A stretch of DNA of 64,000 bases from an uncultured Thermoleophilaceae bacterium (GTDB taxonomy: Bacteria > Actinomycetota > Thermoleophilia > Solirubrobacterales > Thermoleophilaceae), in the NCBI GenBank assembly GCA_963803085.1, contig CAWDLE010000033.1:71597-135596 (forward strand), in the 5' to 3' direction. The notes beneath the pieces were generated by a model. That model was not told where the DNA came from, did no database searches, and saw nothing but the letters and a program-made list of their open reading frames with translations. Of the stretch, positions 10,651 through 44,940 are shown piece after piece. Positions within the stretch are counted from its first letter, which is position 1. Every line of letters begins with the position of its first letter. The position numbers and the translations under genes are program-made.

Positions 10651-11739
10651 TCAGTCCTTCAGGAATGACGGAACGTCGATGTCGTCGTCCGAGATCTCGA
10701 GCGAGGCGCGCTGGCGCTCGTCGAGGGACACGTCGCGGCGTCTCGGCTCGCGCCGGCGACCGGTGGAGTCCTCCTCGAACAGCGGCGTGCGACTCGGCCG
10801 CTCGAAGCCCGTGGCGATCACGGTCACTCGGACGGAGTCGGCGAGCGTGTCGTCCACGACCGCGCCGAAGATGATGTTCGAGTTCTGGTCGGCGGCGCTC
10901 TGGATGATCTCGGCCGCCTCGTTCACCTCGAAGAGGCCGAGGTCGGTGCCGCCGGTGATGTTGAGGAGGATGCCCGTGGCGCCCTCGACCGACTGCTCGA
11001 GCAGCGGGCTCGACACGGCGTTCTTCGCAGCCTCGGCCGCCCGGTTCTCGCCGGACGCCTCGCCGATGCCCATGAGCGCCGAGCCGGCGTCCTCCATGAT
11101 CGTGCGCACGTCGGCGAAGTCGAGGTTGATGAGGCCGGGCGTGGTGATCAGGTCGGTGATGCCCTGCACGCCCTGGCCGAGGACGGCGTCGGCCTCACGG
11201 AAGGCGTCGAGGATGCTCGTGCGGCGCTCGACGACGGCGAGCAGCTTCTCGTTCGGGATCACGATCATCGTGTCCACCTGCTCGCGGAGGCGGTCGATGC
11301 CCTCCACGGCCTGGCGCATGCGCTGCGTGCCCTCGAAGTCGAACGGCTTCGTCACGACGCCGACGGTGAGCGCGCCTACCTCCTGCTTGGAGACCTCAGC
11401 GATCACCGGCGCGGCGCCCGTGCCGGTGCCGCCGCCCTCGCCCGCTGTCACGAAGACCATGTCCGCGCCCTTCAGCGCCTCCTTGATCTCGTCGCGGCTC
11501 TCGTTGGCCGCGCCGTAGCCGACGTCCGGGTTCGCGCCCGCGCCAAGGCCGCGCGTGAGCTGATCGCCGATCTGAAGCTTGATGTCGGCGTCGCACATCT
11601 GGAGCGCCTGGGCGTCCGTGTTCACGGCGATGAATTCGACGCCCTTGAGGCCCTGGTCCACCATGCGGTTGACGGCGTTTGTTCCGCCGCCACCGATGCC
11701 GACGACCTTGATGACCGCCAGGTAGCTACCCGTGTCCAT
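10651..11739 (-). CDS. ftsZ: cell division protein FtsZ
   Basis: 362 aa with [15 protein letters not shown] and the tubulin signature [13 protein letters not shown]. Confidence 0.97.
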
Positions 11740-19855: not shown

Positions 19856-21208
19856 CTAGCTGAGCACCCGCTCCAGCCCGACCGAGCGCGAGCCCTTCAC
19901 GAGCACGCGGTCGCCGGGACGGGCCACCTCCTCGAGCAGCGCACTGGCCTCCTCAGGCGTGGCCACGGGCTGCGTCTCGCCGTCGAAGCCGGCGGTGTAG
20001 GCGAGAGCCTCCTCACCCACCGGCACGAGCAGGTCCACCCCGCGCTTCGCCGCGTGTGCGCCGATCTCGCGGTGGTACTCAGGCGAGTCCTTGCCGAGCT
20101 CCGCCATCGTGCCCAGCACGGCAATCCGGCGCTCAGCCGGGCTTTCCGCCAGATGGTCGAGGGCCGCCCGCATGGACATGGGGTTGGCGTTGTAGCAGTC
20201 GTTCACGACCACGACACCGCCCGGCAGCTCCACCACCTCGCCGCGCATGGACGAGAACTGCACGTTCACGGCGCCGCCCACGCGCACCCCAAGCGCCCGG
20301 GCGGCGGCCACCGCGGCCAGAGTGTTGAGCAGGTTGTGAGGCTCGCGGTAGGACAGCTCGAGCTGGATCTGCTCGCCGCGCGCCTCGATCTCCGCGTGCT
20401 CTCCGTCCATGGCAAGGAGCTGGACCTGGCCCCCGGGACCGAAGGTCCACGTGTCGAGGTCGTCGCGCAGATGCGAGTCGAGCAGCGGCTCGCTGGCAGG
20501 CACCACGCACGCGGCGCCCGGCCGCAGGTCGCGGATCAGCTCAGCCTTGGCGGCGGCCACGCGCTCGACGGTGCCGAGGATCTCAAGGTGCACCGGGCCC
20601 ACATTCACGATCACCCCCACGTCGGGCTCCGCGATCTCCGCGAGCTCGGCGATCTGGCCCTCGCCTCGCATCGCCATCTCGAGCACGAGCACCTCGGTGC
20701 CGCGCTCGGCCTCGAGGATCGTGAGCGGCAGGCCGATCTCCGTGTTGAAGTTCTCCTGGCTTGCGTGAGTGCTTGCGCGCGAGCGAATCAGCGCCGCGAG
20801 GATGTCCTTGGTCGAGGTCTTGCCGGTCGAGCCGGTCACCCCGGCCACGCGCGCGCCGAGCTCGCGGCGCCACCCGCGCGCGACCAGCTGGAGCCCGCGC
20901 AGCGGATCGCGCGCCAGGATCGCTGTTGCGGAGGCGCACGACGACTGGCCGGTGGAGCTCTCCGCGGCCTCGACCGCCGCCGCGCGGTGCTCCGGCCCCA
21001 CGAGTACTCCCCACGCCCCCGCCTCGAGCGCCTGGGCGGTGAAGCGCCCGCCGTCCGCACTCGCGCCGCGCAGGCCCACGAACAGGTCCCCGGGCCCCAC
21101 CTCGCGCGAATCGATCACCGCTCGCTCCGGCCCGGCCCGCTCGGGGTCACCCGCGGCCAGCTCTCCCCCCGCCAGGGCGGCGATCCGGCCTGCCGACAGG
21201 TCGATCAC
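19856..21208 (-). CDS. murF: UDP-N-acetylmuramoyl-tripeptide--D-alanyl-D-alanine ligase
   Basis: 450 aa with GVTGSTGKTSTKD. GTG start overlapping the murE stop. Confidence 0.93.
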   Translation of the reverse strand: MIDLSAGRIAALAGGELAAGDPERAGPERAVIDSREVGPGDLFVGLRGASADGGRFTAQALEAGAWGVLVGPEHRAAAVEAAESSTGQSSCASATAILARDPLRGLQLVARGWRRELGARVAGVTGSTGKTSTKDILAALIRSRASTHASQENFNTEIGLPLTILEAERGTEVLVLEMAMRGEGQIAELAEIAEPDVGVIVNVGPVHLEILGTVERVAAAKAELIRDLRPGAACVVPASEPLLDSHLRDDLDTWTFGPGGQVQLLAMDGEHAEIEARGEQIQLELSYREPHNLLNTLAAVAAARALGVRVGGAVNVQFSSMRGEVVELPGGVVVVNDCYNANPMSMRAALDHLAESPAERRIAVLGTMAELGKDSPEYHREIGAHAAKRGVDLLVPVGEEALAYTAGFDGETQPVATPEEASALLEEVARPGDRVLVKGSRSVGLERVLS

Positions 21209-22614
21209 GCCCGCACCCCGAGCCGCGCCCGCAGCGCCTCACGAGCCACGGTCACATCGTCAAACGGCTCCTTGCGGCCGTTCTCGAACTCCTGGCCCTG
21301 CTCGTGGCCCTTTCCGGCGATCACAACCACGTCGCCGGGCTCGGCCTCCTCGATCACCCGCGTGATCGCGCCGCGGCGGTCGACCTCGCGCTCGGCCTCG
21401 GGCCCGGCGCCCTCCATCACCTCGTCGATGATCGCCTCGGGCTGCTCGCTGCGCGGGTTGTCCGACGTGACAACGACGCGATCGGCGAGCCGCCGGGCGG
21501 CCTCCCCCATCAGGGGACGCTTGCCGCGGTCGCGGTCCCCGCCCGCGCCGAAGATCACGTGAACGCGACGGCGCGTGACCTCTCGTGCCGCGCGCAGGAC
21601 GTTCTCGAGCGAGTCGGGCGTGTGCGCATAGTCCACGAGCACGCCGAAGTCCTGGCCCTCGTCGACGGCCTCGAAGCGCCCCGGCACGCGGCCGAAGCCC
21701 TCGAGCGAGATCTCCTCCACGCCCAGCGAACGCACGGCGGCCACCGCAGCGAGCACGTTCTGCACGTTGAAGAGCCCTGGCAGCGGCGAGTCGATCCGCA
21801 GCTCGCCGTCCGGTGACTCGAGCAGGAAGCGCGACCCCATCAGGTCGAACTCGATGTCGCGCGCCCGGTAGTCCGCCTCACGCTCGATGCCGAAGGTCAC
21901 GGCGTCCACCTCGGCGGCCAGGCGGCGGCCGTACCCGTCGTCCACGTTCACCACCGACAGCCCCGGCTCCTCGAACAGCCGGCGCTTGGCCGCGAAGTAA
22001 GCGTCCATGGTCTCGTGGAAGTCGAGGTGGTCCTGGGTGAGGTTGGTGAACACGCGGCATGCGAAGCGAATGCCGGCCACCCGCCCAAGCTCGAGGGCGT
22101 GCGAGGACACCTCCATCGCCACTGCGCTGTCGCCGCGGTCGCGCATGCGCCTGAAGGTCTCCTGGAGATCGATCGCCTCCGGGGTCGTTCGCTCGACCTC
22201 CTCCTCCATGCCGCCCACCACGCGCTTCACCGTCCCGAGGAGGCCCGTCTGCCGGCCGGCCGCCTCGAGCAGCTGGCGAACGAGGAACGCCGTTGTGGTC
22301 TTGCCGTTCGTGCCCGTGATGCCGACCACGTCGAGCTCGGCTGTGGGATCGCCGTAGAAGCGGGCCGCCGCCGGGCCCATGGCGGCTCGGACGTCGTCCA
22401 CCACCACCTCGGGCACGCCGAGGTCGAGGCGGCGCTCGGTCACGAGCGCGGCGGCACCGCGCTGAACCGCATCAGGAGCGAAATCGTGGCCGTCCGAGCG
22501 GAAGCCCGGTACGCAAAAAAAGAGCGCCCCCGGGGTGACGCTCTGGCTCGAGTAGGCCAGGCCCGAGATCTCGACCTCGGGCGCCCCAGGGCCCATCAGG
22601 TCGCGAAGGGTCAT
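21205..22614 (-). CDS. murE: UDP-N-acetylmuramoyl-L-alanyl-D-glutamate--2,6-diaminopimelate ligase
   Basis: GITGTNGKTTTAF is present along with a DNPR motif (TSDNPRSE). The start is taken at MTLRDLMGPG (ATG 22614). The 773-aa track ORF continues antisense through the neighbouring plus-strand gene and is not credible. Confidence 0.92.
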   Translation of the reverse strand: MTLRDLMGPGAPEVEISGLAYSSQSVTPGALFFCVPGFRSDGHDFAPDAVQRGAAALVTERRLDLGVPEVVVDDVRAAMGPAAARFYGDPTAELDVVGITGTNGKTTTAFLVRQLLEAAGRQTGLLGTVKRVVGGMEEEVERTTPEAIDLQETFRRMRDRGDSAVAMEVSSHALELGRVAGIRFACRVFTNLTQDHLDFHETMDAYFAAKRRLFEEPGLSVVNVDDGYGRRLAAEVDAVTFGIEREADYRARDIEFDLMGSRFLLESPDGELRIDSPLPGLFNVQNVLAAVAAVRSLGVEEISLEGFGRVPGRFEAVDEGQDFGVLVDYAHTPDSLENVLRAAREVTRRRVHVIFGAGGDRDRGKRPLMGEAARRLADRVVVTSDNPRSEQPEAIIDEVMEGAGPEAEREVDRRGAITRVIEEAEPGDVVVIAGKGHEQGQEFENGRKEPFDDVTVAREALRARLGVRA

Positions 22615-22644
22615 GGATCCCGGTGAGACTACCCGCTGGGCAAG

Positions 22645-23661
22645 ATGCCTCACGACCGCTACACCCCTCACGCTTTTGCGCTGGGAGCCGATAGGTATCA
22701 CGTGAGCGGCACCGCCCTGAGTTCGCTCGCTCGCCTCGCGGAACGCCGATTCACAAGCTTCTCCGAGGCAGCCGACACGGTCCTCGACTTGCTCGAGGCC
22801 GAGCTCCCGCCTGGTTCCGTACTTCTGGGCCGCGTGGACTGGGACGAGGGCGAGCTTCACCTGATCGACGTGCGCGGCGCGGCGGCCTCCCAGCTTCAGG
22901 CCGGCGGCACGCTGCCACTGGCCCCCGGAGCGAACAGCGCCGGGACCGGATTGCTCGATCCGGCCGCCCTCCAGCGCCTCTCGGTTCGCTCCTACCTGGC
23001 CCTGCCGCTCGAGACCAGCTCCGGCGCGGGAGCGCTCACCGTTTGCGCGCTCGCGGCCGGCACCGACGTCTTCTCGCAGACCCACCTGGAGCTGCTCACG
23101 GTGGCCGGGCGCCTGCTCACCTACGAGTGGGAGAGCGTGAAGTGGCGCGCCGACCTTCGCCGGCTCAACGAGCGACTGCGCGACCCGGAGCGCACCGACG
23201 CGCTCACGGGCCTGCTGAACCGCATCGCCTTTGTGGAGGCCACCGAGCGCGAGTGGCGGCTCGCCGAGCGGGGGACACTCGAGACGTACGTGCTCGCTTG
23301 CCGGATCACGAACCTCGGCCAGATCTCGCAGCGCCACGGCTCCGCCGTGGGCGAGCTGCTGCTGAAGGACGCCGCCGACGTGATGCAGACGGCCGTTCGC
23401 CGCACGGATTACGCCGGCCGCCTCGCCGACGACGTGTATGGCGCGGTGCTGGTGGGCTGCAAGGGACTCGAGGGCGCCGCCGCGTTCATCGGGCGCTACG
23501 GGCAGGCGCTCCAGCGCGTGACTCACGAGCGCCCGGCGCAGCTCGAGGTCACGTATGCGATGTCCTCGCTGGGCGACGCCGAGTCGCCCGAGGCCGCTCT
23601 TGACCGGGTCGAGACCGAGGCCAGGGACGCCCCCGTGCCGGTCACCGGGGAGGTCGCGTGA
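22645..23661 (+). CDS. GAF domain / degenerate GGDEF domain protein (A-site ADDVY, I-site RRTD retained)
   Basis: 338 aa. An N-terminal GAF-like region is followed by a GGDEF-domain start (DALTGLLNRIAFVE). The GG(D/E)EF position reads RLADDVYGAVL, and RRTD lies exactly 5 residues upstream, as for a canonical RxxD I-site. Confidence 0.8.
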   Translation: MPHDRYTPHAFALGADRYHVSGTALSSLARLAERRFTSFSEAADTVLDLLEAELPPGSVLLGRVDWDEGELHLIDVRGAAASQLQAGGTLPLAPGANSAGTGLLDPAALQRLSVRSYLALPLETSSGAGALTVCALAAGTDVFSQTHLELLTVAGRLLTYEWESVKWRADLRRLNERLRDPERTDALTGLLNRIAFVEATEREWRLAERGTLETYVLACRITNLGQISQRHGSAVGELLLKDAADVMQTAVRRTDYAGRLADDVYGAVLVGCKGLEGAAAFIGRYGQALQRVTHERPAQLEVTYAMSSLGDAESPEAALDRVETEARDAPVPVTGEVA

Positions 23662-26600
23662 GCGGGGAGGCAGGCACCGCCACGCCGCCGCCCCCGAAGG
23701 GAGTGGTTCCGCCCACTGAGCCCGGCGGCCGCTCGGGCTTCCTGAGCGACGTGATCGTCGAGCTCGGCTTCGCCACTTCGGATGCCGTCGAGGAGGCGGT
23801 CCGCGAGGCGCGCAGCGGAAGCACGGTCGCGCAGGTGCTCGTGGAGTCCGGCACGATCAGCGAGGAGCAGCTCGCGCGCGCGACCGCCGAGCGCTACGGG
23901 ATCGCCTACATCGATCTGGAGAACTACGAGGTCGACTCGAACGCCGCCGCGATGATCAAGCCGTCGGCCGCGAAGCGCTACCACGCAGTTCCCGTCGGCT
24001 TCGTGGGCGGAGGGCTGCTTGTGGCCATGGCCGATCCGGCGGACGCCCTCGGTGTGAACGACATCGCGGTGATGACGAAGCTCGAGGTCCAGCCGGCGGT
24101 GGCACCGCGCCCCGCTCTCGACGCGCTGCTCGACAAGCTCACGCTCGTCGCCGAGGGCTCCGACGAGGCAGCCGGGGACGAGGAGGGCGCGGGCAAGCCA
24201 ACGCGCGCCGCATCCACTGCGGTGTTCTGGCAGGCGGACGAGGCCGACGGCGAGGGACAGGAGCAGGATCTGCCGTCGGTCCAGCGCGCGCCGGTGGAGC
24301 GCTCCGCGGACCCCCGCGAGACCGAGCACATGCGCGCCGAGCTGGTCGAGCTGCGCCGCAAGCTGGTGGGCGCCGAGACCGAGCTCGTCAAGGCGCGCGC
24401 CGAACTGAGCGCCTCACAGGACGACCTCACGGCCGCCCGCGAGGCCGCCAACGGCCCGAACGCCCAGCAGGAGCAGCTCAAGACGGCGCTGGCTGAGGCC
24501 CGAGCGGCCGCGGACAGGGCGTCCACCGAGGTCGAGGAGCTGCGCGGCCGGATCACCGCGATGGAGTCCGAGCTCGCCGAGCAGCGCGAGAGCGCCGCAA
24601 AGGTGGCGGAGGAGCGCGAAAGCGCAGCCGCGAAGGCGGCCGAGCACGAGGCCGAGCTCGCGCGCGAGCGCGACGCAGCGGCCGCCAAGGCCGCCCAGCA
24701 CGAGGCCGAGCTCGCCGCCGCCACCGAGGCAGCCGAGAAGGCCGCCGCGATCGAAGCGGAGCTTGCCCGCGAGCGCGAGGCCGCCGCCGCTAAGGCCACC
24801 CAACACGAGGCCGAGCTCGCAAGGGAGCGCGAGGCCGCCGCCGCCAAGGCCGCCCAACACGAGGCCGAGCTCACGCGCGAGCGCGACGCAGGGGCCGCCA
24901 AGACCGCCGAGCACGAGGCCGAGCTGACCCGCGAGCGCGAGGCAGCCGCCGCAAAGGCCGCCCAACACGAGGCCGAGCTCGCCGCCGCCACCGAGGCAGC
25001 CGAGAAGGCCGCCGCGATCGAGGCCGAGCTTGCCCGCGAGCGCCAGGTAGCCGCGGCGAAGGGCGCCGCCGAATCGGACCTGCAGGCCGAGCGCGAGGCG
25101 GCGCTCGCTAGGGCGGCCGCCGTGGAGTCTGAGCTGGATGCGGAGCGCAAGGCCGCGGATACGGCGCTCGTCAGAGCCGCTGCCGCCGAGGGCGAGCTCG
25201 CCTCCTTGCGGGAGGAGACGGCTCAAAGCCTTGCCGAGATCGAGGCCGAGCTCACGCGTACTCGCGAGCACGCGGCCACGCCGCAGGCCGAGGTCGAGGC
25301 GCTTCGCGAGCAGCTCGGCAACGCGCAGGTCGAGCTCGAGGCTGCGCTCGCGGCCGCCCAGCAGGCAGAGGGCAGCGCCAAGCAGCTCCAGGAGCTTCGG
25401 GACTCGCTCGGCAACACGCAGGCCGAGCTGGAGAGCGTGCGCGGTCGCAGCGACGAGCTCGAGGCTCAGGTGCAGCAGGCCGAGGACCGAGCCCGCACTC
25501 TCACGGAGAACGCCGGAGCGGCACAGACCCGAGTGGAGGAACTCGAGCGCCTGCTCGACAGCACGCGCACCGAGGGCCGGAACGTCGAAACCAAGCTGCA
25601 GGAGGCGCTCGCCGCCCGCGAGAGCCACGAGGCCGACCTCACGGGTGCCCGTGCCGCGGCGGAACAGGCTGAGGCCAAGCTCGAGGATGCCCGCGCACAG
25701 GCCGAGCGGCTGGAGAGCGAGCTGAACGAGGCGCGCGGCGCCGACAGCGGAATCGAGCACAAGCTGGCTGACGCCGGCGTTGCGATCGAACGACTCGAGG
25801 CGGAGCTTGCGCGCTCGCTCGCGGAGAACGAGACCTTTGGCGCACAGCTGCGCGAGGCCGTGGCCGCCTCGGAGGGGCACGAGGAGGAGCTGGGGGCCGC
25901 ACGCAGCGAAGCCAAGCGCCTCGCCACCGAACTTGCCGAGGCGCACGCCGAGACAAAGACGCTCGCCGACGAACTCGCCCTCACCCGTAGCGCCACCGAG
26001 GGATTCGACGCGAGCCTCAGCGAGGCGCGCGACCAGGCCGAGGAGCTTCGCAGCGAGCTCGCCGACGCCCGCTCACAGGTCGAGCGGCTCGAAGCCGATC
26101 TCGAGCAGGCCCGCTCGGCCAAGGAGGAGCTCGACGCCGAGCGCGCACGCACGCGCTCCGAGCTCGAGGGTCTCGAGACCGAGCTGGCCCAGGCGCGGGC
26201 GGCGAGCGACGGCCTCACCGCTCAGCTCAGCGGTGCACGGGCGAAAAGCGAGGGTCTGATCGTCGAGCTGCGCGGTGCCCGCGGGGCGGCCGAGGCGCTC
26301 GAGGAGAAGCTCACCGAGGCACAGGCCGCGACAGAGGCGGCGGAGGCCGAGCTGGCCGAGGAGCGCACCGCGAAGGAGAAGCTGGCAGCCAAGCTCTCAG
26401 AGGCACGCGCCAAGGCCGAGAAGCTCGCGGAGCTGCAGCCGCGGCTCGACGATGCGGAGGCCGAGCTCGCGAAGCTGCGCGACGAGGCCGGCAGCCTCGA
26501 GGACCTGCGCACCGAGCTGGAAAATGCGAACGCAGGACTGGAGAGCGCGAGCGCCGAGGCACGCAAGCAGGGCGACGAGCTCCTGATCACGCAGAAGGCG

Positions 26601-26924
26601 CTCGACCGCGCCGGCACGCAGGCGGCGGAGCTGCGCAGCGAGCTGGCCGAGACCCAGACCGCGCTTGACCGCGCACGCCTCGAGGCCCAGGAGCTGGACA
26701 CGCTGCACGCCAAGCTGTCGGACGCCGAGCTTGCGCTCCGCGAGTCCGACCAGGCGCACAAACAGACGCGGAAGCGCATGGAGCGCGTGGAGGGCCGGCT
26801 GGCCGAGGCCCAGGGCGCCGCATTTGCCTCGGAGCGGGCCGCGGATCAGCTGCGCATGGCGCAGGAGCGGATGCGCGAGGCGCTCCGCCCGCTCGACGAA
26901 GACGAGCCGGATCCGTCCGCCTAG
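23658..26924 (+). CDS. T2SSE_N/MshEN-like N-terminal domain fused to a very long Ala/Glu-rich coiled coil (1088 aa)
   Basis: The GTG start overlaps the upstream stop (GTGA). Residues of roughly 25-165 look like a GspE/PilB N-domain (VAQVLVESGTISEEQLARATAERYGIAYIDLENYEVD...AKRYHAVPVGF...LLVAMADP). The remainder is heptad-like low complexity (AELARERxAAAAKAAQHE...) with no TM segment. Confidence 0.85.
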   Translation: MSGEAGTATPPPPKGVVPPTEPGGRSGFLSDVIVELGFATSDAVEEAVREARSGSTVAQVLVESGTISEEQLARATAERYGIAYIDLENYEVDSNAAAMIKPSAAKRYHAVPVGFVGGGLLVAMADPADALGVNDIAVMTKLEVQPAVAPRPALDALLDKLTLVAEGSDEAAGDEEGAGKPTRAASTAVFWQADEADGEGQEQDLPSVQRAPVERSADPRETEHMRAELVELRRKLVGAETELVKARAELSASQDDLTAAREAANGPNAQQEQLKTALAEARAAADRASTEVEELRGRITAMESELAEQRESAAKVAEERESAAAKAAEHEAELARERDAAAAKAAQHEAELAAATEAAEKAAAIEAELAREREAAAAKATQHEAELAREREAAAAKAAQHEAELTRERDAGAAKTAEHEAELTREREAAAAKAAQHEAELAAATEAAEKAAAIEAELARERQVAAAKGAAESDLQAEREAALARAAAVESELDAERKAADTALVRAAAAEGELASLREETAQSLAEIEAELTRTREHAATPQAEVEALREQLGNAQVELEAALAAAQQAEGSAKQLQELRDSLGNTQAELESVRGRSDELEAQVQQAEDRARTLTENAGAAQTRVEELERLLDSTRTEGRNVETKLQEALAARESHEADLTGARAAAEQAEAKLEDARAQAERLESELNEARGADSGIEHKLADAGVAIERLEAELARSLAENETFGAQLREAVAASEGHEEELGAARSEAKRLATELAEAHAETKTLADELALTRSATEGFDASLSEARDQAEELRSELADARSQVERLEADLEQARSAKEELDAERARTRSELEGLETELAQARAASDGLTAQLSGARAKSEGLIVELRGARGAAEALEEKLTEAQAATEAAEAELAEERTAKEKLAAKLSEARAKAEKLAELQPRLDDAEAELAKLRDEAGSLEDLRTELENANAGLESASAEARKQGDELLITQKALDRAGTQAAELRSELAETQTALDRARLEAQELDTLHAKLSDAELALRESDQAHKQTRKRMERVEGRLAEAQGAAFASERAADQLRMAQERMREALRPLDEDEPDPSA
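24571..25160 (+). repeat. in-frame tandem repeat array (about 10 units of 51-54 nt; higher-order duplication of about 270 nt)
   Basis: The protein units ARER[DE]AAAAKAAQHEAEL and AAATEAAEKAAAIEAEL recur. The block AAKAAQHEAELAAATEAAEKAAAIEAELARER occurs twice, at about 24690 and 24955. Confidence 0.85.
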
Positions 26925-28621
26925 CCGGGCGGGATCTTCAGGTACGGCAGCGCGAACTCCATGATGCGCTCGAAGGCGGGCGCTGCCACGGTGCCGCCGT
27001 AGATGTCGCCGCGTGGCGTGTCGACCATCACCGCCACCAGCAGGCGCGGGTTCTTCGCCGGGGCGAAGCCAATGAAGGACGCGATGAAGTCCGTCTTCGA
27101 GTAGCCCCCCTTGATCGCCTTCTCGGCCGTACCGGTCTTTCCGGCGAGCGTGTACCCCTCGACCTGGGCCTCCTCCGCCGTCCCTCCGGCGGCCAGCACA
27201 CCCTCGAGCATGTGCGACACCTGCTCCGCGGTACGGCGCGAGAGCACCCGCTTGGGCGGCGGCGCCTCACCCTGCACGATGTAGGGACGGCGCATCACGC
27301 CGTGGTTGGCGATCGCGGTGTACGCGGTGGCCATCTGCATCGGGGTGACCGCGATGCCCTGGCCGATCGGCATGTTCCCCATCGAGGAGCCCGAGTAGTT
27401 CCCCGGGCGAAGGACGATGCCGCCCTCCTCGCCTGGGAGGTCCACTCCGGTCGGCCGGCCGAACCCGAACCGGCGCACCCACTTGTCGAACTTCTTCGCG
27501 CCGAGCTTCAGCCCGATCATCACCGAGCCCACGTTCGATGACTCCGCGAGGATCTGCGACACCGTCTTGGTGCCTCCGCCGCCATCGTGGGCCTCGCCGA
27601 CGGTCCGGTCAGCCACCGTAATCTCCGGCGGCACGGCCAGCGTCGTTCCGGGCTCCACCAGCCTCTCCTCGAGCGCGCCGGACACGGTGAAGGCCTTGAA
27701 GGTCGAGCCCGGCTCGTAGTTCGCCTGGATCGAGCGGTTCTGGCGCGCGTAGGCGGGCGCGCCGTCCACGTTGTTGGCGTCCACACGCGGCCAGTTCGCG
27801 AGCGCGAGCACCTGGCCCGTCCGTGGGTCCAACACAACCGCCGTGGCACCCACCGGCGTGTAGGTCTGGCCGACGTCCGCGAGCACCGCCTCGGTGCGCT
27901 CCTGGATGCGGGCATCGAGTGTGAGCGCGAGATCGTCGCCAGGCTCGGAGCGCTTCGTCTCGATCATGCTGATCGGCTCGCCGAGCGCGTCCTTCACGAG
28001 CCGGCGCTCGCCATCCTCGCCGCTCAATGACTCGTCCTCCGAGTACTCCAGCCCAGACAGCCCGGTGTTGTCGGTGCCGACGAGGCCAAGCACCTGCGAC
28101 GCCAGGAACCCCTGCGGGTACGTGCGCTTCGGCTCGGTGACCGTGCCGATGCCCTCGATCCCGAGCTTCTCGACCTTGTCGCCGCGCGTGGCGTCCATCT
28201 TGCGCTCCAGGTAGATGAACCCGGTCTTCCTGTCGGATAGCTCGCGGAGCAGCTCGTCCTCGGGACGCTCGAGCAGCGGCGCGAGCTCGGCGGCCACCTT
28301 CACCGGGTCCTTGATCAGAAACGGATTTGCGAAGACGGTCACGGAGTCCTCAGAGACCGCCAGCTCCACGCCGTTGCGGTCCACGATCGTCCCGCGGCGC
28401 GCCGGATCGGCCATGTCCTCGATCTGCTGGCTCACCGCGCGCTCGGACAGTGAGCCGGCTCTCACCGTTCCGATCCAGGTGGCGCGCAGGGCCGCCAGCC
28501 CGAGCAGTAGAAGGAAGACCGCGAACAGCAGGCCGATGCGGCGCTCGACCAGCCGCACGGGCGGACGCCCCGGACCCCGCTGGCGGCGCCGGGTCGGAGG
28601 GCGTCGCTGGGTAGCGGGCAC
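26921..28621 (-). CDS. ftsI: class B penicillin-binding protein / peptidoglycan D,D-transpeptidase FtsI
   Basis: 566 aa with an N-terminal TM segment and the transpeptidase triad SxxK (GSTFKAF), SxN (ESSNVG) and KTG (GKTGTA). Confidence 0.93.
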   Translation of the reverse strand: MPATQRRPPTRRRQRGPGRPPVRLVERRIGLLFAVFLLLLGLAALRATWIGTVRAGSLSERAVSQQIEDMADPARRGTIVDRNGVELAVSEDSVTVFANPFLIKDPVKVAAELAPLLERPEDELLRELSDRKTGFIYLERKMDATRGDKVEKLGIEGIGTVTEPKRTYPQGFLASQVLGLVGTDNTGLSGLEYSEDESLSGEDGERRLVKDALGEPISMIETKRSEPGDDLALTLDARIQERTEAVLADVGQTYTPVGATAVVLDPRTGQVLALANWPRVDANNVDGAPAYARQNRSIQANYEPGSTFKAFTVSGALEERLVEPGTTLAVPPEITVADRTVGEAHDGGGGTKTVSQILAESSNVGSVMIGLKLGAKKFDKWVRRFGFGRPTGVDLPGEEGGIVLRPGNYSGSSMGNMPIGQGIAVTPMQMATAYTAIANHGVMRRPYIVQGEAPPPKRVLSRRTAEQVSHMLEGVLAAGGTAEEAQVEGYTLAGKTGTAEKAIKGGYSKTDFIASFIGFAPAKNPRLLVAVMVDTPRGDIYGGTVAAPAFERIMEFALPYLKIPPG

Positions 28622-28623
28622 GG

Positions 28624-29391
28624 CTAGCCCGCCGGCGCGGTGGTCGTGGGAGGCGCTGTGGTGGCGGCCGGATCTGCGGGGATGGTGGTGGCGGCCGGGT
28701 CGGCCGCAGCCGGATCGGTGACGACAGGGTCGGCTGCGGCGGGGTCGGTGACGGCTGGGTCTGTGCTCGGCACCACCGGCTCCGGTGCCACCGGCTCCGG
28801 AGCGACGTACGTGAGATTCGGCTCGGTGATCCGCTTGACCGCCTGTCCGGCGTCGCGCGTGGGCCGCGCCTTCAGGTAGCGCACCTCACCGGGCGCGGGC
28901 AGCACGAGCCCGAGCAGCGCGGCCGACTCCTGGATGCGCTCGCTCGAAGCGAGCCTGGCCTCCTCGAGGAGGAGGCGTGCGTTCTCGCGCTTGAGCGCCG
29001 AGACCCGGTCCGCATCGCGTGCGATGTCGCGGTTCATCTGGAGCAGGTCGACGTTGAAGAAGACGATCCCAGCAAGCAGCACGAAGACGAGTGCGATCCA
29101 GCCGCGTCCGGACAGGAGGGCGTCGAGGAGGCTGCCGGTGCGCGCGCGGGCCGCCCGGGCGAAGGGGGCGTTGAGGACGCGGACCGGAAGGGCGACGGCG
29201 GGCGCGCCCGCGGAGGCACCGGACAGGCGCCGGTGCGCCGCGGCCCCACGCTGTGAAGTGGTGCGCGTCCGCCCGGCGTGCCGCGCCGGCGCACGGCGAG
29301 CGGGTGCGCGCTTCGGCGCAGCCTGGGCCCGACCGGTGGGAGCGCGGCGTGACGCAGGGCGGGGAGCGGTGGCCGCCGCCGTGCGGGCCAT
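28624..29391 (-). CDS. ftsL: FtsL-like septum formation protein with a basic N-tail and repetitive Pro/Asp/Ala/Thr C-tail
   Basis: Sits between rsmH and ftsI. It has a single TM segment (WIALVFVLLAGIVFFNV) followed by a short coiled coil (DRVSALKRENARLLLEEARL). The start is taken at MARTAAAT (29391), overlapping the rsmH stop by 1 nt. Confidence 0.75.
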   Translation of the reverse strand: MARTAAATAPRPASRRAPTGRAQAAPKRAPARRAPARHAGRTRTTSQRGAAAHRRLSGASAGAPAVALPVRVLNAPFARAARARTGSLLDALLSGRGWIALVFVLLAGIVFFNVDLLQMNRDIARDADRVSALKRENARLLLEEARLASSERIQESAALLGLVLPAPGEVRYLKARPTRDAGQAVKRITEPNLTYVAPEPVAPEPVVPSTDPAVTDPAAADPVVTDPAAADPAATTIPADPAATTAPPTTTAPAG

Positions 29392-30356
29392 CAGGCGGCT
29401 TCCCTGAGCTTGCGCGCGGCACGCAGGCGGCCCGACTTGGCGCGCGGGTTGTCGGCCATCTCTCCGGCCGTCGGCACGACGGCGCGGCCGATCAACTCCG
29501 CCTCCGGCTCGCGCCCGCACACGCACACGGGGAAGTCGGGCGGACAGACGCAGCCGCGGGCGCGCTCCGCGAGGAAGCGCTTTACGCGCCGGTCCTCGAG
29601 TGAGTGGAAGGAGATCGCGGCGAGGCGGCCGTTCTCGCGCAGCAGCTCCCAGGCGAGCGGGAGCGCGCGATCGAGAGAGTCGAGCTCTGAGTTCACGGCG
29701 ATCCGGATGGCCTGGAACACGCGCTTCGCGGGGCTGCCACCGCCGAAGCTGCGGCGCACCGCGGCCGGCAGCGCGCCCTCGATCGCCGAAACCAGCTCGC
29801 CTGTCGTCTGAATCGGCGCGCGCTCGCGGCGCCGCACGATCTCGCGCGCGATCCGCTTCGAGTTCGGGTCCTCGCCTAGGCGCCGGAAAAGCTGGGCCAG
29901 CTGGCGTTCGTCCCAGGTGTTCACGATCTCGCGCGCGTCGAGCTGTTGGCCCGGGTCCATGCGCATGTCGAGCGGCGCGTCGTACGAGTAGGAGAAGCCG
30001 CGCTCGCGCGCGTCGACCTGCATCGACGAGATCCCGAGGTCCAGGTAGATGACGTCCGCGGACAGGCCCTCTTCGCGGAGGAGGTCGAGCCCCTCGGCGT
30101 AATCCATGCGCAGGAAGCGCGTCTCGCAGGCGACCTCGCGCGCAAGCTCCTCGAAGTGCTCCTCGGCCGCGGGGTCGCGATCGATGCAGACGAGCGTCCC
30201 GGACGGGCCGATCCGGTCTGCGATCAGGCGCGCGTGACCGCCCGCGCCGAAGGTGCAGTCGACCACCGTCTCGCCCGCCGCCGGCGCGGTCAACTCGATC
30301 AGCTCGCCGGCCAGCACGGGTACGTGGACGCGGTTCATGTCAAGAAGGATGGCCAA
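29391..30356 (-). CDS. rsmH: 16S rRNA (cytosine1402-N4)-methyltransferase
   Basis: HVPVLAGE..., DCTFGAGGHA and FHSLEDR motifs are present. An alternative start is ATG 30338. Confidence 0.93.
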   Translation of the reverse strand: MAILLDMNRVHVPVLAGELIELTAPAAGETVVDCTFGAGGHARLIADRIGPSGTLVCIDRDPAAEEHFEELAREVACETRFLRMDYAEGLDLLREEGLSADVIYLDLGISSMQVDARERGFSYSYDAPLDMRMDPGQQLDAREIVNTWDERQLAQLFRRLGEDPNSKRIAREIVRRRERAPIQTTGELVSAIEGALPAAVRRSFGGGSPAKRVFQAIRIAVNSELDSLDRALPLAWELLRENGRLAAISFHSLEDRRVKRFLAERARGCVCPPDFPVCVCGREPEAELIGRAVVPTAGEMADNPRAKSGRLRAARKLREAA

Positions 30357-30774
30357 GGCGTTCCGTCACCTCCCCGATCTCGGCGTCGAGGGCCTCCTGC
30401 TGCTCGTGCCAGTGCTCCTTGGACCAGACCTCGAGATGGTCGCCGACACCCACCACCACGACCTCCTTCTCGATCCCGGTGTGGGTGAGCAGCGGCGGCG
30501 GCAGCGTCACGCGGCCGCTCGCGTCCAGTTCGATCTCGAAGGAGTTGCCCTGGTAGAAGCGCGAGAGCTTGCGGTACTCCGAGCCCATCGGGTTCAGGCC
30601 ACCGAGCGCGCGCTCGATGATCGCCTCGTGCGTCTCGGGAGTCCACACCGCCACGCAGGGCTCCGGGTCCTTGGCGAGAACGGTTCCACTGGCGAAGGAC
30701 GTGCGAAAGCGGGCCGGAATACTGAGCCGGTTCTTCGCATCCAACGAGTGCTCGAAGTGGCCGCGAAATGCCAA
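30340..30774 (-). CDS. mraZ: division/cell wall cluster transcriptional regulator MraZ
   Basis: 144 aa with two SpoVT/AbrB-like repeats carrying DxxxR motifs (LDAKNRLSIP, LDASGRVTLP). TTG start. Confidence 0.92.
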   Translation of the reverse strand: MAFRGHFEHSLDAKNRLSIPARFRTSFASGTVLAKDPEPCVAVWTPETHEAIIERALGGLNPMGSEYRKLSRFYQGNSFEIELDASGRVTLPPPLLTHTGIEKEVVVVGVGDHLEVWSKEHWHEQQEALDAEIGEVTERLGHPS

Positions 30775-31683: not shown

Positions 31684-32532
31684 CTAGAGCGGCAAGGCGT
31701 CGGCGCTGCCATCGAGCAGCGCCGACGCCAGCGCCGCTGCCACCAGCAATAGGACCGACGGCACGAGCAGCAGCGCCACCACGAGCTGGATCTTCGGACC
31801 GGCGCGGGCGGCGTCGTCGCGGATCCGGCGCGCCAGCGCAAAGCGGGCGCTGCGGGCCTGTGCTGCGAGCGTGTCCGCCAGCGGAGCGCCGTGACGCCGT
31901 GCGCGCTCGAGCGCGCCGACGAGTGCGTGGATCTCCGGCAGCGGCAGCCGCTCGTCCATTCCGCGGAGCGCCTCCGCCAGCGGGACCCCAAGCGCGACCT
32001 CCCGCCCCACTGCCGCCCACTCGCGCGCGAGCGGACCGCTGGAGCGCTCGCCCACCAAGCGCAGCGCCTCCGGCAGCGAGCCGCCGGCCTCGACGCTCAC
32101 GCGCAGGATGTCGAGCAGCGCCGGCAGGTCGCGGCGCACACGCCGCGCGCGCTCGGCGGCCACGCGCGAGAGCCAGAGGTCCGGGGCGAGGAAGCCTGCC
32201 GCCGGCGCGCCCAGGATGATGACGAGCCCGAGGCGGCCGGGCGCGAGCGCCGCGAGCGGCAGCGAGGCCGCTCCCAGCAGAACCGCGGCGGCCACCTTCG
32301 CCGCCATCGCCTCACGAACGCCGAGACCCGCGGGACGTCCAGCCGCCTCGATGCGACCGCGGAGATCACGTGGCGCGCCGGCGGGCCGGGCGCGGCGGCC
32401 GGCAGATGCGAGCAGGAGCAGCAACCTGAGGCCGCGCTCCGGTCCGCGCGGCGCCGCACGCCGCTCCGGCACGAGCGTGAGCAGGCCGGCCGCTCCGCAC
32501 GCACCGGCCGCGAATGCGAGCAGCGTGCTCAC
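31684..32532 (-). CDS. tadC: type II secretion system F family protein (TadC-like)
   Basis: T2SSF motif LPALLDILRVSVEAGGSLPEAL with flanking TM segments. The start is taken as GTG 32532 (GTGA overlap with the tadB stop). The rest of the 573-aa track ORF is an Arg-rich shadow. Confidence 0.8.
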   Translation of the reverse strand: MSTLLAFAAGACGAAGLLTLVPERRAAPRGPERGLRLLLLLASAGRRARPAGAPRDLRGRIEAAGRPAGLGVREAMAAKVAAAVLLGAASLPLAALAPGRLGLVIILGAPAAGFLAPDLWLSRVAAERARRVRRDLPALLDILRVSVEAGGSLPEALRLVGERSSGPLAREWAAVGREVALGVPLAEALRGMDERLPLPEIHALVGALERARRHGAPLADTLAAQARSARFALARRIRDDAARAGPKIQLVVALLLVPSVLLLVAAALASALLDGSADALPL

Positions 32533-33395
32533 CAGCGCACTCTTCCGAGCCTGCGCGTGAGCACGGCGGCGGCGAGTTGCAGCATGAGGGCGATACCCAC
32601 GAGCCACGCAGTGAGGAACGAGCTCCACAGCCCGAGAAACCAACCCGGGCTTGCGAGCTCGGCCAGCAGGCCGCCGCCCACCGGCATCAGGACCACGAGC
32701 ATCGCGGTGAAGCGCGCCTGCGCGGTGGCGGAGCGGACCTCGTCCTCGAGACGCGAGTGGTCCTCCATCGCGCGGGCGCTCTCGCGGAGCAGGCCCGCGA
32801 GGTCGCCGCCGGCATGGCGCTGGAGCACGCACGCCGCCACGAGCGTGTCCATGCGTGGTGAGCGCACGCGTAGCCGCATGGCCTCGAGTGCGTCGTCGGT
32901 GGCAGCGCCCGCCTCGAGCTCGGCGGCTGTGCGGCGGAGCTCGTGCCCCGCCGCTCCACCGAGGCCGCCGGCCGCCTCGACGAGGGCCGCGCGCAGAGAG
33001 CGCCCGCCGCCGATCGCATCGGCGATGGCCACCGCGCCCTGCGCCACGCCGGCGTCGACCGCAGCGCGATAGCGCTCGCGGCGCGCGCGCAGCAGTCGGC
33101 CGACGGCCCACGGGCTCGAGGCGCCAAGCGCGAGCCCGGCAAGCGGGCCGACGGTGATCGCCCCGGCAGCGAGCGCGCCCACCGACACGCCCACCAGCAG
33201 GCGCCGGCGCTCGGCCACCCCAGGGTCGCGCCCCTCGCGCCCGGCGCGCACGAGAACCTCCACGAGCCCAGCGCCCGCGCCCGCCCAGCGTGGCACACGC
33301 GCTGCGACCCGGGACAGTGCGAGCCCGCCGAGCTCGAGCGCCGCAGCACCGGCGGCCGCGCCGCCAAAAAACGCGAGCGCCGCGGCGGCGCTCAC
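32529..33395 (-). CDS. tadB: type II secretion system F family protein (TadB-like)
   Basis: 288 aa with a T2SSF-like core (IADAIGGGRSLRAAL) and terminal TM segments. Confidence 0.8.
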   Translation of the reverse strand: MSAAAALAFFGGAAAGAAALELGGLALSRVAARVPRWAGAGAGLVEVLVRAGREGRDPGVAERRRLLVGVSVGALAAGAITVGPLAGLALGASSPWAVGRLLRARRERYRAAVDAGVAQGAVAIADAIGGGRSLRAALVEAAGGLGGAAGHELRRTAAELEAGAATDDALEAMRLRVRSPRMDTLVAACVLQRHAGGDLAGLLRESARAMEDHSRLEDEVRSATAQARFTAMLVVLMPVGGGLLAELASPGWFLGLWSSFLTAWLVGIALMLQLAAAVLTRRLGRVRW

Positions 33396-33441
33396 CAGGG
33401 CCCACCGCGTGCCGCGCTCGGGGATGCCGCGCCCATCGCGA

Positions 33442-34653
33442 TCACGGGAGCGCGCCGCGTGGCGCGCGCACGCTCGCCCCTCCCCCGCGCAGTCGCTCCA
33501 GCCGCGTCGCGAGCTGCCCGGGGCCTGGCCGGCGCAGGCGGGCGCCGCGCGACCACAGCTCGCGTGTGCCCGCCCCGCCCGCCACCCGCACCACCTCGGT
33601 CACGGATTCGACCACCCGCGATCCGTCGGGAAGCCGGGCCTGGTGCACAACCACGTCCAGGGCGCTCGCCACCTGATCCCTCACGGCGGCATGTGGCAGC
33701 CCCACTCCCGCCATCAGGGCAAGCGTTTCAACCCGCCGCAACGCATCGGCCGGTGAGTTCGCGTGGACGGTCGTGAGCGAGCCGTCGTGCCCGGTATTGA
33801 GCGCCTGGAGCATGTCGAGCGCCTCCGCGCCCCTCACCTCACCCACGACGATCCGGTCGGGCCGCATGCGCAGCGCGTTCACCACCAACTGCCTGATCGT
33901 GATCTCGCCGCGACCCTCGAGGTTCGGCGGGCGCGCCTCGAGCCGCACGACGTGTCGCTGCCGCAGCCGTAGCTCGGCCGCGTCCTCGATGGTGACTATG
34001 CGCTCCTCGCCCGGGATCGCTCCCGAAAGGGCGTTCAGCGTGGTCGTCTTCCCGGAGCCGGTCCCACCGCTCACCAGAACGGACGCCCGCGCCGCCACGC
34101 AGAGCGCGAGCAGCTCGGCGAGCTCCGCCGGAAGCGTGCCGCCCGCCACCAGCTCCCGCAGCGAGAAGCCCTGGCGCCGGAAGCGCCGGACGGTGAGGCA
34201 CGGACCCGAGAGCGACAACGGCGGGATCACCACGTTCACGCGTGACCCGTCGGCCAGCCGGGCGTCGCACAGCGGCGACGCCTCGTCCACCCTGCGCCCC
34301 AGCGGCGCGAGGATCCGCTCGACGGCGTGCATCAGCTCCGCCTCCGACCCGAAGCGCACGCCGGTCCGCTCGATGCGCCCGCGCCGCTCCACGTACACGG
34401 CCTCGGGCCCGTTCACCATCACCTCGTCCACCGCAGGATCCGACAGCAGCGGCTCGAGCGGCCCCAGACCGGTGGCCAGCAGCAGCACGCGCCGGCGCAG
34501 CGAGTCCTGCTCCGATTCCGGCAAGGCACCCGCCTCACGTTCCACGAGCTCGCGCACCTCGGCATCGAGCCCCGCGGCGCCCGTCTCGCCCGCGCGCGCC
34601 CTCTCGATCAGCCGCGCGCGCAGCGCGACCGCGAGGTCATCGAGAGCCTCCAT
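33442..34653 (-). CDS. cpaF: CpaF/TadA family pilus assembly ATPase
   Basis: 403 aa with Walker A (VSGGTGSGKTTTLNAL), RPDRIVVGEVRG and HDGSLTTVHAN. Confidence 0.92.
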   Translation of the reverse strand: MEALDDLAVALRARLIERARAGETGAAGLDAEVRELVEREAGALPESEQDSLRRRVLLLATGLGPLEPLLSDPAVDEVMVNGPEAVYVERRGRIERTGVRFGSEAELMHAVERILAPLGRRVDEASPLCDARLADGSRVNVVIPPLSLSGPCLTVRRFRRQGFSLRELVAGGTLPAELAELLALCVAARASVLVSGGTGSGKTTTLNALSGAIPGEERIVTIEDAAELRLRQRHVVRLEARPPNLEGRGEITIRQLVVNALRMRPDRIVVGEVRGAEALDMLQALNTGHDGSLTTVHANSPADALRRVETLALMAGVGLPHAAVRDQVASALDVVVHQARLPDGSRVVESVTEVVRVAGGAGTRELWSRGARLRRPGPGQLATRLERLRGGGASVRAPRGALP

Positions 34654-43414: not shown

Positions 43415-44019
43415 TAGCCGAGCGCATTCCGTTGCCCGGCGGCGAGGTGGAGCTGATGCGACCGCCGGATGCAGAGGCGCTGATCAGCGAGGAGTCGTTC
43501 GAGCACGAGGAGTTCCTGCCCTACTGGGCGGAGCTGTGGGCCAGCGCCGTTGCCCTCGCGCATGACGTGGCGATGAGGTCGCTGCGCGGCAAGCGGACGC
43601 TCGAGCTGGGCTGCGGACTCGGTCTGCCGAGCATCGCGGCGGCGCGAGCCGGCGGCCGCGTTCTGGCCACCGACTGGTCACCAGACGCCGTGCGCGCCAC
43701 CGCTGCGAACGCCGAGCGGAACGATGTCGACATCGAGACGCTGTGCTGCGCATGGGGCGAACCGGACGAGATCGTGGCCCGTGGGCCCTGGCATCTCGTG
43801 CTCGCCTCCGACGTGCTCTACGAGCGCCGCAACGTCGACCAGCTGCTGGACCTGCTGCCGCGCCTGGTGGACGAGCGCGGCCTCGTCCTGCTCGCCGACC
43901 CTGGGCGCGCCCACTCAGCTGGGTTCCTGGAGCGGGCCACCGAGAACGGGTGGATCATCCGCAGCACGCACAGCCCGCGCGCCCAGCGCGTCTCGATTCA
44001 CCGCATGCGGCGCGGCTAG
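43411..44019 (+). CDS. class I SAM-dependent methyltransferase (Nnt1/METTL21-like)
   Basis: 202 aa with LELGCGLGLPSIAAA and SDVLYE. TTG start overlapping the pepF stop. Confidence 0.8.
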   Translation: MIAERIPLPGGEVELMRPPDAEALISEESFEHEEFLPYWAELWASAVALAHDVAMRSLRGKRTLELGCGLGLPSIAAARAGGRVLATDWSPDAVRATAANAERNDVDIETLCCAWGEPDEIVARGPWHLVLASDVLYERRNVDQLLDLLPRLVDERGLVLLADPGRAHSAGFLERATENGWIIRSTHSPRAQRVSIHRMRRG

Positions 44020-44909: not shown

Positions 44910-44940
44910 GCTGGTGTTATCGGCGGCGTGAGGGCGAGCC

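Follow-up and report, generated by a model that had tools for sequence, protein, structure and literature searches.

A two-gene insert with a WhiG-type promoter divides the dcw cluster between ftsI and murE in Thermoleophilaceae

Why should two genes read from the opposite strand lie between ftsI and murE, in the middle of a cluster of cell wall and division genes (dcw)? The question is raised by a stretch of 64,000 nucleotides, hereafter the window, from an uncultured Thermoleophilaceae bacterium (contig CAWDLE010000033.1, positions 71,597 to 135,596), in which the minus-strand dcw genes are interrupted by a gene for a GAF-like protein with a degenerate GGDEF domain and a gene for a coiled-coil protein of 1088 residues, both on the plus strand. 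With moderate confidence, we favor the explanation that this pair is a self-contained operon of a WhiG/cyclic di-GMP (c-di-GMP) network of Thermoleophilia, which became fixed between ftsI and murE in the Thermoleophilaceae. The conservation of the insert, the kind of proteins that it encodes and the promoter in front of it all bear on this explanation, and each of them also bears on one or more alternatives.

The divided dcw cluster and its conservation

The dcw genes of the window, from mraZ to ftsZ, follow the canonical order on the minus strand (Table 1). A preliminary description of this DNA had counted 15 of them; the strand and the order are borne out, but the number is 14, without ftsA, of which no copy was found within the 64-kb window. 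The split itself is real, in that the canonical contiguity is broken at ftsI/murE by the two plus-strand genes. This leaves an upstream unit, mraZ-rsmH-ftsL-like-ftsI, in which ftsI is the last gene, and a downstream unit that begins with murE. The G+C content at third codon positions (GC3) is 0.88 in both inserted open reading frames (ORFs), typical of genuine genes in the window, whose overall G+C content is 71%. The make-up of the insert is also as first described, with Pfam, an AlphaFold2 (AF2) model and Foldseek in agreement on the first gene, and it holds as well that a promoter at mraZ could serve murE to ftsZ solely through antisense reading across the insert.

The synteny in related genomes was followed with a profile of the coiled-coil protein's N-terminal domain, which was run against one genome per species; the best 80 of 199 relatives were kept, and their loci were sorted by tblastn. 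The order murE(-), GGDEF gene(+), coiled-coil gene(+), ftsI(-) was found in 36 of the 80 loci (class A; a few contigs stop before ftsI), and in nine more the coiled-coil gene stands alone between murE and ftsI, the GGDEF gene having been lost (class B). A homologous pair with no dcw gene within 10 kb occurs in four loci, all of them in metagenome-assembled genomes of Solirubrobacterales, and the other 31 are PilB-like matches, with 44-52% identity in the head domain. The coiled-coil gene is therefore located between murE and ftsI in 45 of the best 80 species-genome loci. The carriers of the insert are nearly all labelled Thermoleophilaceae, and the closest of them have 93-96% identity to the window in the head domain.

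The preliminary description had asked that a mis-assembly be excluded, and an assembly artefact or a local inversion in this sequence can now be regarded as a practically negligible possibility, because the arrangement recurs in these 45 loci. Independent metagenome contigs have a layout identical to that of the window, dozens of assemblies made independently show the same arrangement, long-read contigs of 0.3-2.9 Mb among them, the sequences of both junctions are conserved, and the insert has no flanking repeats. Judging from these sequences, the insert has become an evolutionarily fixed part of the ftsI-murE interval in the Thermoleophilaceae. It constitutes a family-wide exception to the co-directional linkage of ftsI and murE, and indicates that the dcw cluster tolerates a permanent division into two transcription units with one head-on and one back-to-back junction.

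The ftsI-murE boundary is a recurrent site of clade-specific insertions, such as spoVD in B. subtilis and Rv2159c-Rv2162c in M. tuberculosis, and in Bacillus some of the insertions at this boundary are driven by alternative sigma factors. The window resembles these cases in having clade-specific genes at the same place. However, the inserts of Bacillus and M. tuberculosis are co-directional with dcw, whereas that of the window lies on the opposite strand, with an overlapping convergent stop at one end and a divergent promoter pair at the other. Insertion by a mobile element was considered and ruled out by the absence of flanking repeats: the repeat search found neither direct nor inverted repeats at the borders, only those internal to the coiled-coil gene, and Pfam and NCBIfam revealed no transposase or integrase genes.

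Both proteins are strongly conserved among the relatives, with 63-99% identity for the first and 44-96% for the second, and the pair is also kept outside dcw, which implies selection on the proteins themselves. Three loci outside dcw were checked for the 4-nt overlap of the two genes, and all three have it. The neighbors of the copies outside dcw are unrelated metabolic genes, with products that comprise a 5'-3' exonuclease, an epimerase, a P450, universal stress proteins and enzymes of fatty-acid synthesis.

Table 1. Coordinates of the features discussed, as positions in the 64,000-nucleotide window
Feature	Position	Strand	Evidence or remark
ftsZ	10651-11739	-	last in canonical order
ftsQ	between murB and ftsZ	-	POTRA domain; canonical order
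mraY, murD, ftsW, murG, murC, murB	between murF and ftsQ	-	canonical order
murF	19856-21208	-	canonical order
murE	21205-22614	-	first gene of the downstream unit; NCBIfam MurE 5e-160, model aligned from residue 12
Intrinsic-terminator-like element in murE	22514-22544	-	terminator scan; 8-bp GC-rich hairpin + U7; codons ...SVTPGALFFCV
-10-like hexamer TAGTCT (TAnnnT)	22626-22631	-	11 nt upstream of murE ATG
Putative WhiG (sigma-28 family)-type promoter, CTCA-N16-GCCGATAG	22667-22694	+	CTCA 22667-22670; GCCGATAG 22687-22694
GAF-like + degenerate GGDEF protein, 319 aa	22702-23661	+	Pfam GGDEF (PF00990) 4.6e-18
RxxD I-site, RRTD	23398-23409	+	five residues before ADDVY (RRTD-YAGRL-ADDVY)
GGDEF-position motif, ADDVY	23425-23439	+	sequence
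1088-aa protein: GSPII/MshEN head + linker + ~860-residue helix	23658-26924	+	Pfam MshEN (PF05157) 2.8e-15
GSPII/MshEN-fold domain, residues 27-162	23736-24143	+	Pfam, PDB profile matches, alignments
Tandem 54-nt (18-aa) repeats, ~8 copies, ERDAAAAKAAQHEAELAR-like	24612-25067	+	Tandem Repeats Finder, score 407
Conserved C-terminal motif FASERAADQLRMAQERMREALRPL	26823-26894	+	homologue alignment
CTAG, overlapping stops of ftsI and the coiled-coil gene	26921-26924		TAG 26922-26924; ftsI stop is the complement of 26921-26923
ftsI-like class-B penicillin-binding protein	26921-28621	-	Pfam PBP_dimer + Transpeptidase 7.9e-77; NCBIfam SpoVD/FtsI-type matches
ORF in ftsL position, ~300 aa	28624-29526	-	position; Pfam: no match
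rsmH	29391-30356	-	canonical order
mraZ	30340-30774	-	canonical order

The two encoded proteins

According to its sequence and its model, the first protein is cytoplasmic and consists of a GAF-like sensor fused to a catalytically degenerate GGDEF domain. The AF2 model (predicted local distance difference test score, pLDDT, of 85) has the GGDEF fold and superposes on GGDEF structures in Foldseek with root-mean-square deviations of 1.9-2.6 Å over about 150 residues, with the GAF-GGDEF protein Dcsbis (4zmu) and phytochrome-coupled cyclases as full-length matches. The GAF_2 matches obtained for homologues outside dcw were weak or precomputed. Across 48 homologues the active-site motif reads [ASGD][DE][DE]x[FYLV] in place of GG(D/E)EF, while the R and the D of the RxxD motif, which stands at the position of the I-site, are invariant in 48/48 sequences. 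The analogy with known I-site receptors leads to the prediction that the protein binds c-di-GMP and does not synthesize it. Degenerate GGDEF proteins that act as c-di-GMP receptors through the I-site include PopA, PelD, SgmT and CdgA. Like the window protein, these have lost GG(D/E)EF and kept RxxD five residues upstream; however, they carry a receiver or a transmembrane domain at the N-terminus, whereas the window protein has a GAF-like domain, a PilB-N coiled-coil protein as its presumed partner and a predicted binding activity.

The GGDEF gene overlaps the coiled-coil gene in GTGA (23658-23661), with a GGAGG upstream, which suggests that both genes are translationally coupled. The head of the second protein belongs to the MshEN fold and family and is nearly invariant among the homologues. 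In the PDB profile search it matched PilF (4e-47), PilB (1e-20), MshE (9e-14) and the N-terminal domain of X. citri PilB (7lkm, 1.7e-11), and the nearest matches after the coiled-coil homologues were the PilB-like proteins mentioned above. Among the loci of the latter, 26 of 31 are not cut by a contig end; their ORFs span roughly 590-760 aa and, with few exceptions, end in a PilB-type C-terminus. Two that were scanned against Pfam are MshEN + T2SSE ATPases. As far as the sequences tell, the head is a copy of the N-terminal domain found in the lineage's PilB. Pfam and NCBIfam detected no T2SSE ATPase domain (PF00437) after the head, the rest of the protein being a helical repeat, which sets it apart from PilB and GspE.

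In the helical part, Ala makes up 26%, Glu 19%, Leu 11.5% and Arg 9.6% of the residues, and only three Pro occur from residue 226 to residue 1077. In the AF2 model of a homologue of 381 aa, the head (residues 28-160, pLDDT ~88) is followed by a disordered segment (167-210) and a single uninterrupted helix (211-377, pLDDT >95). The lengths of the homologues are bimodal, 327-579 aa against 911-1098 aa, the window protein falling in the long clade, and the C-terminal motif FASERAADQLRMAQERMREALRPL is common to the short and long homologues at the dcw site. The coiled-coil rod may have a length of 25 nm to more than 100 nm. Its combination with a PilB N-terminal domain defines an architecture that was so far uncharacterized. 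The linker contains the motif (S/T)AVFWQA (residues 187-193; 24216-24236, plus strand), which is kept in the homologues nearest to the window (at least about 70% head identity) and absent in more distant ones. Neither the coiled-coil protein nor its homologues contain the c-di-GMP motif of RsiG, E(X)3S(X)2R(X)3Q(X)3D.

Two other identities suggested by database matches were rejected. The PADLOC matches to the defense proteins LmuB and JetC are weak and compositional and concern the coiled-coil arms of these SMC-like proteins, and the NCBIfam scores for SMC/Rad50 are far below the cut-off and were likewise read as compositional.

In MshE, c-di-GMP is bound by two tandem 24-residue motifs, RLGxxLLxxGLLxxxxLxxxLxxQ, for which a relaxed form, [RKPN]hGxxhhxx[GAS]hhxxxxhxxxhxx[QNKRYWST], has been given (PMC5013675). 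The window head has the same fold as the GSPII domains of MshE and PilF (PMC5013675, PMC12002112), with two 24-residue helical-hairpin units, FLSDVIVELGFATSDAVEEAVREA as motif 1 and TVAQVLVESGTISEEQLARATAER as motif 2, in which the hydrophobic and central Gly positions are kept. Nevertheless, the motif is non-canonical, with FLS...A and TVA...R in place of RLG...Q, so that the Arg, the third-position Gly and the Gln that contact the ligand in MshE are replaced in both halves and no ATPase follows. In these replacements the head resembles the non-binding GSPII-A domain of PilF, work on which has indicated that the replaced positions are required for c-di-GMP binding (PMC12002112). The relaxed motif matched neither the window protein nor any of the 27 homologues tested (14 Thermoleophilia PilB and 13 coiled-coil proteins). 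Since the PilB proteins of Thermoleophilia also have no canonical motif, these paralogues are no positive control for a loss of binding.

These features bear on the simplest explanation of a gene pair of this kind, namely that an active diguanylate cyclase feeds an adjacent MshEN effector that binds c-di-GMP. It would agree with the presence of GGDEF and MshEN domains in translationally coupled genes, and with a weak match to the NCBIfam model of the MshE-related c-di-GMP motif (25 bits against a cut-off of 38). However, GG(D/E)EF is replaced in all 48 sequences, and neither MshEN motif has the Arg, Gly and Gln that mutagenesis found to be required (PMC5013675, PMC12002112), which makes such a canonical pair highly improbable.

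Junctions, promoters and an element inside murE

The preliminary description had placed the start of the GGDEF gene 30 nt from that of murE, a distance that came from a mis-set start codon. The in-frame GTG at 22702 is equivalent to the start of most homologues (319 aa), and in 35/35 comparable loci the protein match begins at its equivalent, which is an ATG in two of them; of the 19 codons between ATG 22645 and GTG 22702, 12 are identical to those of a homologue with 91% overall identity. In view of this comparison, the start is most likely GTG 22702 and not ATG 22645. The spacer between murE and the GGDEF gene then has 87 nt (22615-22701) in the window, as against 62-89 nt in the relatives, in which the murE ATG is conserved. 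With 87 nt available, the murE promoter need not lie within coding sequence, as had been supposed, and the conserved TAnnnT hexamer indeed lies in this spacer, outside the GGDEF gene. An alignment of 36 spacers (the window and 35 class A loci) showed two conserved islands, the remaining sequence being variable.

The first island contains CTCA and GCCGAT(A), conserved in 35/35 aligned loci between variable flanking bases. In actinobacteria, the consensus of WhiG promoters has T(A/C)AA or CTCA at -35, a spacing of N16-17 and GCCGATAA or GCCGA at -10 (PMC12871210). Taking as WhiG targets the promoters with CTCA or T(A/C)AA, N16-17 and GCCGA(TAA) at no more than 200 bp from the start codon (PMC12871210), the insert is preceded by such a promoter. 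The motif is retained in 9/9 loci that have lost the GGDEF gene, where it precedes the coiled-coil gene or the leader of that gene, and upstream of 4/4 copies outside dcw. Because it ends 7 nt before GTG 22702, the insert operon is probably transcribed as a leaderless mRNA.

In Rubrobacteria, the sister class of Thermoleophilia, the anti-sigma factor RsiG holds WhiG in a c-di-GMP-dependent complex, and the WhiG of Rubrobacter drives type IV pilus genes and five cyclase/phosphodiesterase genes; three cultured Thermoleophilia are reported to encode WhiG and a single-motif RsiG (PMC8325347). The Rubrobacter regulon (PMC8325347, PMC12871210) has the same promoter architecture as the insert, CTCA or T(A/C)AA, N16 and GCCGATA(A), and its promoters, like those of the type described here, are found on both type IV pilus and GGDEF-type genes. 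A keyword search of the main texts of these two papers gave no mention of a Thermoleophilia regulon, of a target within dcw or of an MshEN-coiled-coil protein, whereas here the use of such a promoter within dcw is predicted from its sequence.

The motif followed by a start codon was found 167 times in the window and all the loci searched, and 82 of these matches had the leaderless geometry before a long ORF of high GC3, a count that includes overlapping -35 readings and alternative start codons of one site. The genes other than the module that are located behind this geometry in Thermoleophilia loci encode PilT-type ATPases, a pilin-like protein with an N-terminal methylation motif and the product of a gene just upstream of pilB. 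The protein encoded by this last gene, uncharacterized and without a Pfam match, has about 200 aa and one hydrophobic segment near its N-terminus; the gene is the first behind a WhiG-type leaderless promoter in L047, L048, L064, L065, L077, L083 and L084. In the window the sole other match with leaderless geometry, which has one -35 mismatch, is CTAA-N16-GCCGATAA-7 nt-GTG 44909 (44917-44944, minus strand). The gene behind it (44016-44909, minus strand) encodes a PAS domain and a degenerate GGDEF domain that keeps RxxD (RPLD-LVGQL-DDERL). The -35 of this second promoter overlaps the stop codon of an upstream M20 peptidase gene.

In six of the loci without the GGDEF gene (L044, L053, L055, L057, L062 and L070) the WhiG-type promoter is followed by a leader, at about 9800-9960 in each locus, which has about 60 nt in L062 and about 115-170 nt in the others. 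It starts with GTGTGCGC(G)CCACCGTGT...GGCGCGCC, contains an inverted repeat and is conserved as DNA and not as a reading frame. This leader may be what is left of the GGDEF gene's 5' end after the loss of that gene, or it may be regulatory.

In the 35 class A loci aligned, the second island, TA..CT (consensus TATCCT), is located 11-12 nt before the start codon of murE. Among the nine class B loci, six have TAnACT (TACACT or TAGACT) at a similar distance, two have TATCCT, and L039 has TATCCT at 10 nt. murE thus owns a conserved promoter-like element, as the preliminary description had expected of it, and the TAGTCT of the window is a candidate promoter for the murE..ftsZ unit, which would have little or no leader. 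The -10 elements of the two divergent promoters, WhiG-type and murE, are 55 bp apart. A consensus scan of positions 21000-29000 found no sigma-70 promoters.

In the same interval the only strong terminator-like match lies within murE itself, about 70 nt into its coding region, where a hairpin of -13.9 kcal/mol is followed by a run of U, the combination expected of an intrinsic terminator. The U7 is encoded by two TTT Phe codons, a codon that accounts for 7% of Phe codons here, and is the sole A/T run of seven or more in the 64-kb window. In the relatives the T-run is kept in 39 of 42 loci, as T7 in 29 and T5CT in 10, synonymous positions included; the other three have TTCTTC instead, and in L038, the one of these that was folded, the hairpin is also gone. 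A Thr/Ala codon variant in the hairpin turns a G·U pair into an A-U pair. As the minimum-free-energy fold of the first 116 nt of murE is unexceptional (z = -0.9) and does not contain the hairpin, the case for this element rests on the local hairpin, the U-run and their conservation. We infer that it could be an attenuator on the murE..ftsZ transcript, which a closely coupled ribosome might override, and in this way it may control the entire murE..ftsZ unit.

At the other end of the insert, the CTAG at 26921-26924 was read in the preliminary description as the convergent stops of the coiled-coil gene and ftsI, and inspection of the sequence bears this out. In most relatives the convergent junction has either this CTAG overlap or a gap of no more than about 25 nt, and no conserved hairpin or terminator was found there among the relatives examined. 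Either the convergent transcripts overlap, or termination falls inside the opposing gene, and the junction could allow interference.

These arrangements invite the explanation that the transcriptional architecture was selected and not the proteins. Transcription driven by WhiG would run head-on into the 3' end of ftsI, and its promoter would share upstream DNA with that of murE, so that interference or promoter competition would modulate mraZ..ftsI, murE..ftsZ or both. The convergent junction of 0-25 nt with no conserved terminator is consistent with this explanation, as are the two -10 elements placed 55 bp apart in a spacer of 62-89 nt and the conserved attenuator-like element early in murE. 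However, both proteins are strongly conserved and the pair is kept outside dcw, and the length of the spacer varies within that range; we therefore consider this explanation very unlikely.

Division, pilus or both

The favored explanation, that of an operon of the WhiG/c-di-GMP network, would imply the following course of events. At low c-di-GMP, WhiG would be freed from RsiG and would transcribe the insert operon together with the pilus genes. The GGDEF protein would be a c-di-GMP receptor, not a cyclase, working with the coiled-coil protein, whose PilB-like head would engage a partner in the pilus motor and whose long stalk would be a scaffold or a tether. The operon would have been captured at the ftsI-murE boundary in the Thermoleophilaceae and then trapped or co-opted. 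For dcw, the consequence would be its division into mraZ..ftsI and murE..ftsZ, the latter with its own near-leaderless promoter and attenuator-like element. This explanation predicts an undescribed WhiG/c-di-GMP target operon in the deepest actinobacterial class.

A comparable relation is found in the FimX-PilZ-PilB(N) system of Xanthomonas and Pseudomonas, in which a degenerate c-di-GMP receptor acts on the N-terminal domain of PilB (PMC8389850). In both cases a degenerate receptor would be coupled to a GSPII-type domain that need not bind the nucleotide itself. However, the PilB-like domain of the window has no ATPase attached to it and is joined to a coiled coil, GAF and GGDEF domains without EAL make up the receptor, no gene for a PilZ adaptor is adjacent, and the interaction is hypothetical.

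Four points weigh against the favored explanation. No gene for WhiG, RsiG or any sigma factor is present in the 64-kb window, and use of the insert promoter by WhiG is deduced from its sequence and from the sister class. No pilus genes of the pilB/pilT type (type IVa) flank the operon in the window, which has only Tad-type genes, upstream of mraZ. The MshEN head does not have the c-di-GMP-binding residues of MshE, nor do the PilB domains of Thermoleophilia. Finally, the coiled-coil gene is kept at the dcw site in 45/45 genomes, which fits a role in division at least as well as one in the pilus.

The last point leads to the explanation that the pair is an accessory of division or cell wall synthesis. 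The coiled-coil protein would act as a scaffold of the divisome or septum in an actinobacterium without FtsA, in the manner of EzrA, DivIVA or Zap-type proteins, and would be tuned by the GGDEF protein through c-di-GMP, and selection for co-inheritance or co-regulation with ftsI and murE would hold the insert in dcw. The functional link to division or wall synthesis that the preliminary description had suggested keeps real weight, because within the family the coiled-coil gene has stayed at dcw in every case; 45 species-level genomes have it between murE and ftsI, those without the GGDEF gene included. The tight and conserved junctions, the absence of ftsA from the window and the long helical rod with conserved ends are also in line with a role in division, and in Streptomyces WhiG governs sporulation septation (PMC8325347). 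Nevertheless, the link is not established, because in other Solirubrobacterales the same overlapping pair, preceded by the same promoter, has metabolic genes as its neighbors, this type of promoter precedes type IV pilus genes in the same class, the only globular part of the coiled-coil protein is copied from the N-terminal domain of PilB, and nine genomes no longer have the GGDEF gene at the dcw site. Furthermore, Pfam and NCBIfam found no similarity to known divisome proteins, and dcw is plastic in other respects too, with no murF match between murE and mraY in 12 loci. On balance, a role in division appears unlikely as the explanation of the insert.

It is also conceivable that a WhiG/c-di-GMP switch is wired into dcw itself, combining marking of the septum or new pole, licensing of the pilus motor and coupled expression of murE..ftsZ; we regard this as a speculative and quite unlikely possibility. 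If it were true, basal actinobacteria would express, from inside dcw, a c-di-GMP receptor and a coiled-coil landmark that mimics PilB. The pair would serve as a marker of the septum or new pole and would place or license the motor of the type IV pilus once in each cell cycle, and the insert promoter, the murE promoter and the attenuator in murE would jointly couple murE..ftsZ to the same signal. It would then represent the ancestral state of the connection that, in the sporulation of Streptomyces, later ties WhiG to septation, and a functional analogue of TipN-TipF. In Caulobacter, TipN is a membrane-anchored coiled-coil landmark and TipF is an EAL protein, a catalytically dead c-di-GMP receptor. 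The likeness would lie in the combination of a long coiled coil with a dead c-di-GMP receptor, tied to a motility organelle of the sigma-28 type; there is, however, no sequence relationship between the two pairs, TipF having an EAL domain and TipN a membrane anchor.

Each component of the locus is of a known kind, namely a dcw variant, a GGDEF protein of the I-site type, a non-canonical GSPII domain and a WhiG promoter, and what is new is their combination and their location. Our literature search found no description of a dcw cluster split between ftsI and murE or of an MshEN-coiled-coil protein.

Some further observations concern the surroundings of the insert. Directly upstream of mraZ lie the Tad-type pilus genes (31684-34653, minus strand), which encode a CpaF-like T2SSE ATPase and two T2SSF proteins, and this neighborhood is also kept in the related contigs examined (L001-L004). 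In 12 Thermoleophilaceae loci (L010-L013, L016, L017, L019, L028, L029, L032, L038 and L041) the tblastn matches of murE and mraY are adjacent, with no murF match (E <= 1e-10) within the 10-20 kb of sequence that each locus covers. Going by these tblastn matches, it seems that dcw was rearranged a second time within the Thermoleophilaceae. In the Rfam scan of the whole window nothing was found in or beside the insert, and the single match, at 48 kb, is a cyclic di-AMP (c-di-AMP) riboswitch of the ydaO type (RF00379, 78 bits; 48034-48193, minus strand). It is located upstream of a gene (47433-48026) for an Rpf-like transglycosylase with a peptidoglycan-binding domain, and the association of c-di-AMP riboswitches with Rpf-like genes is already known in actinobacteria.

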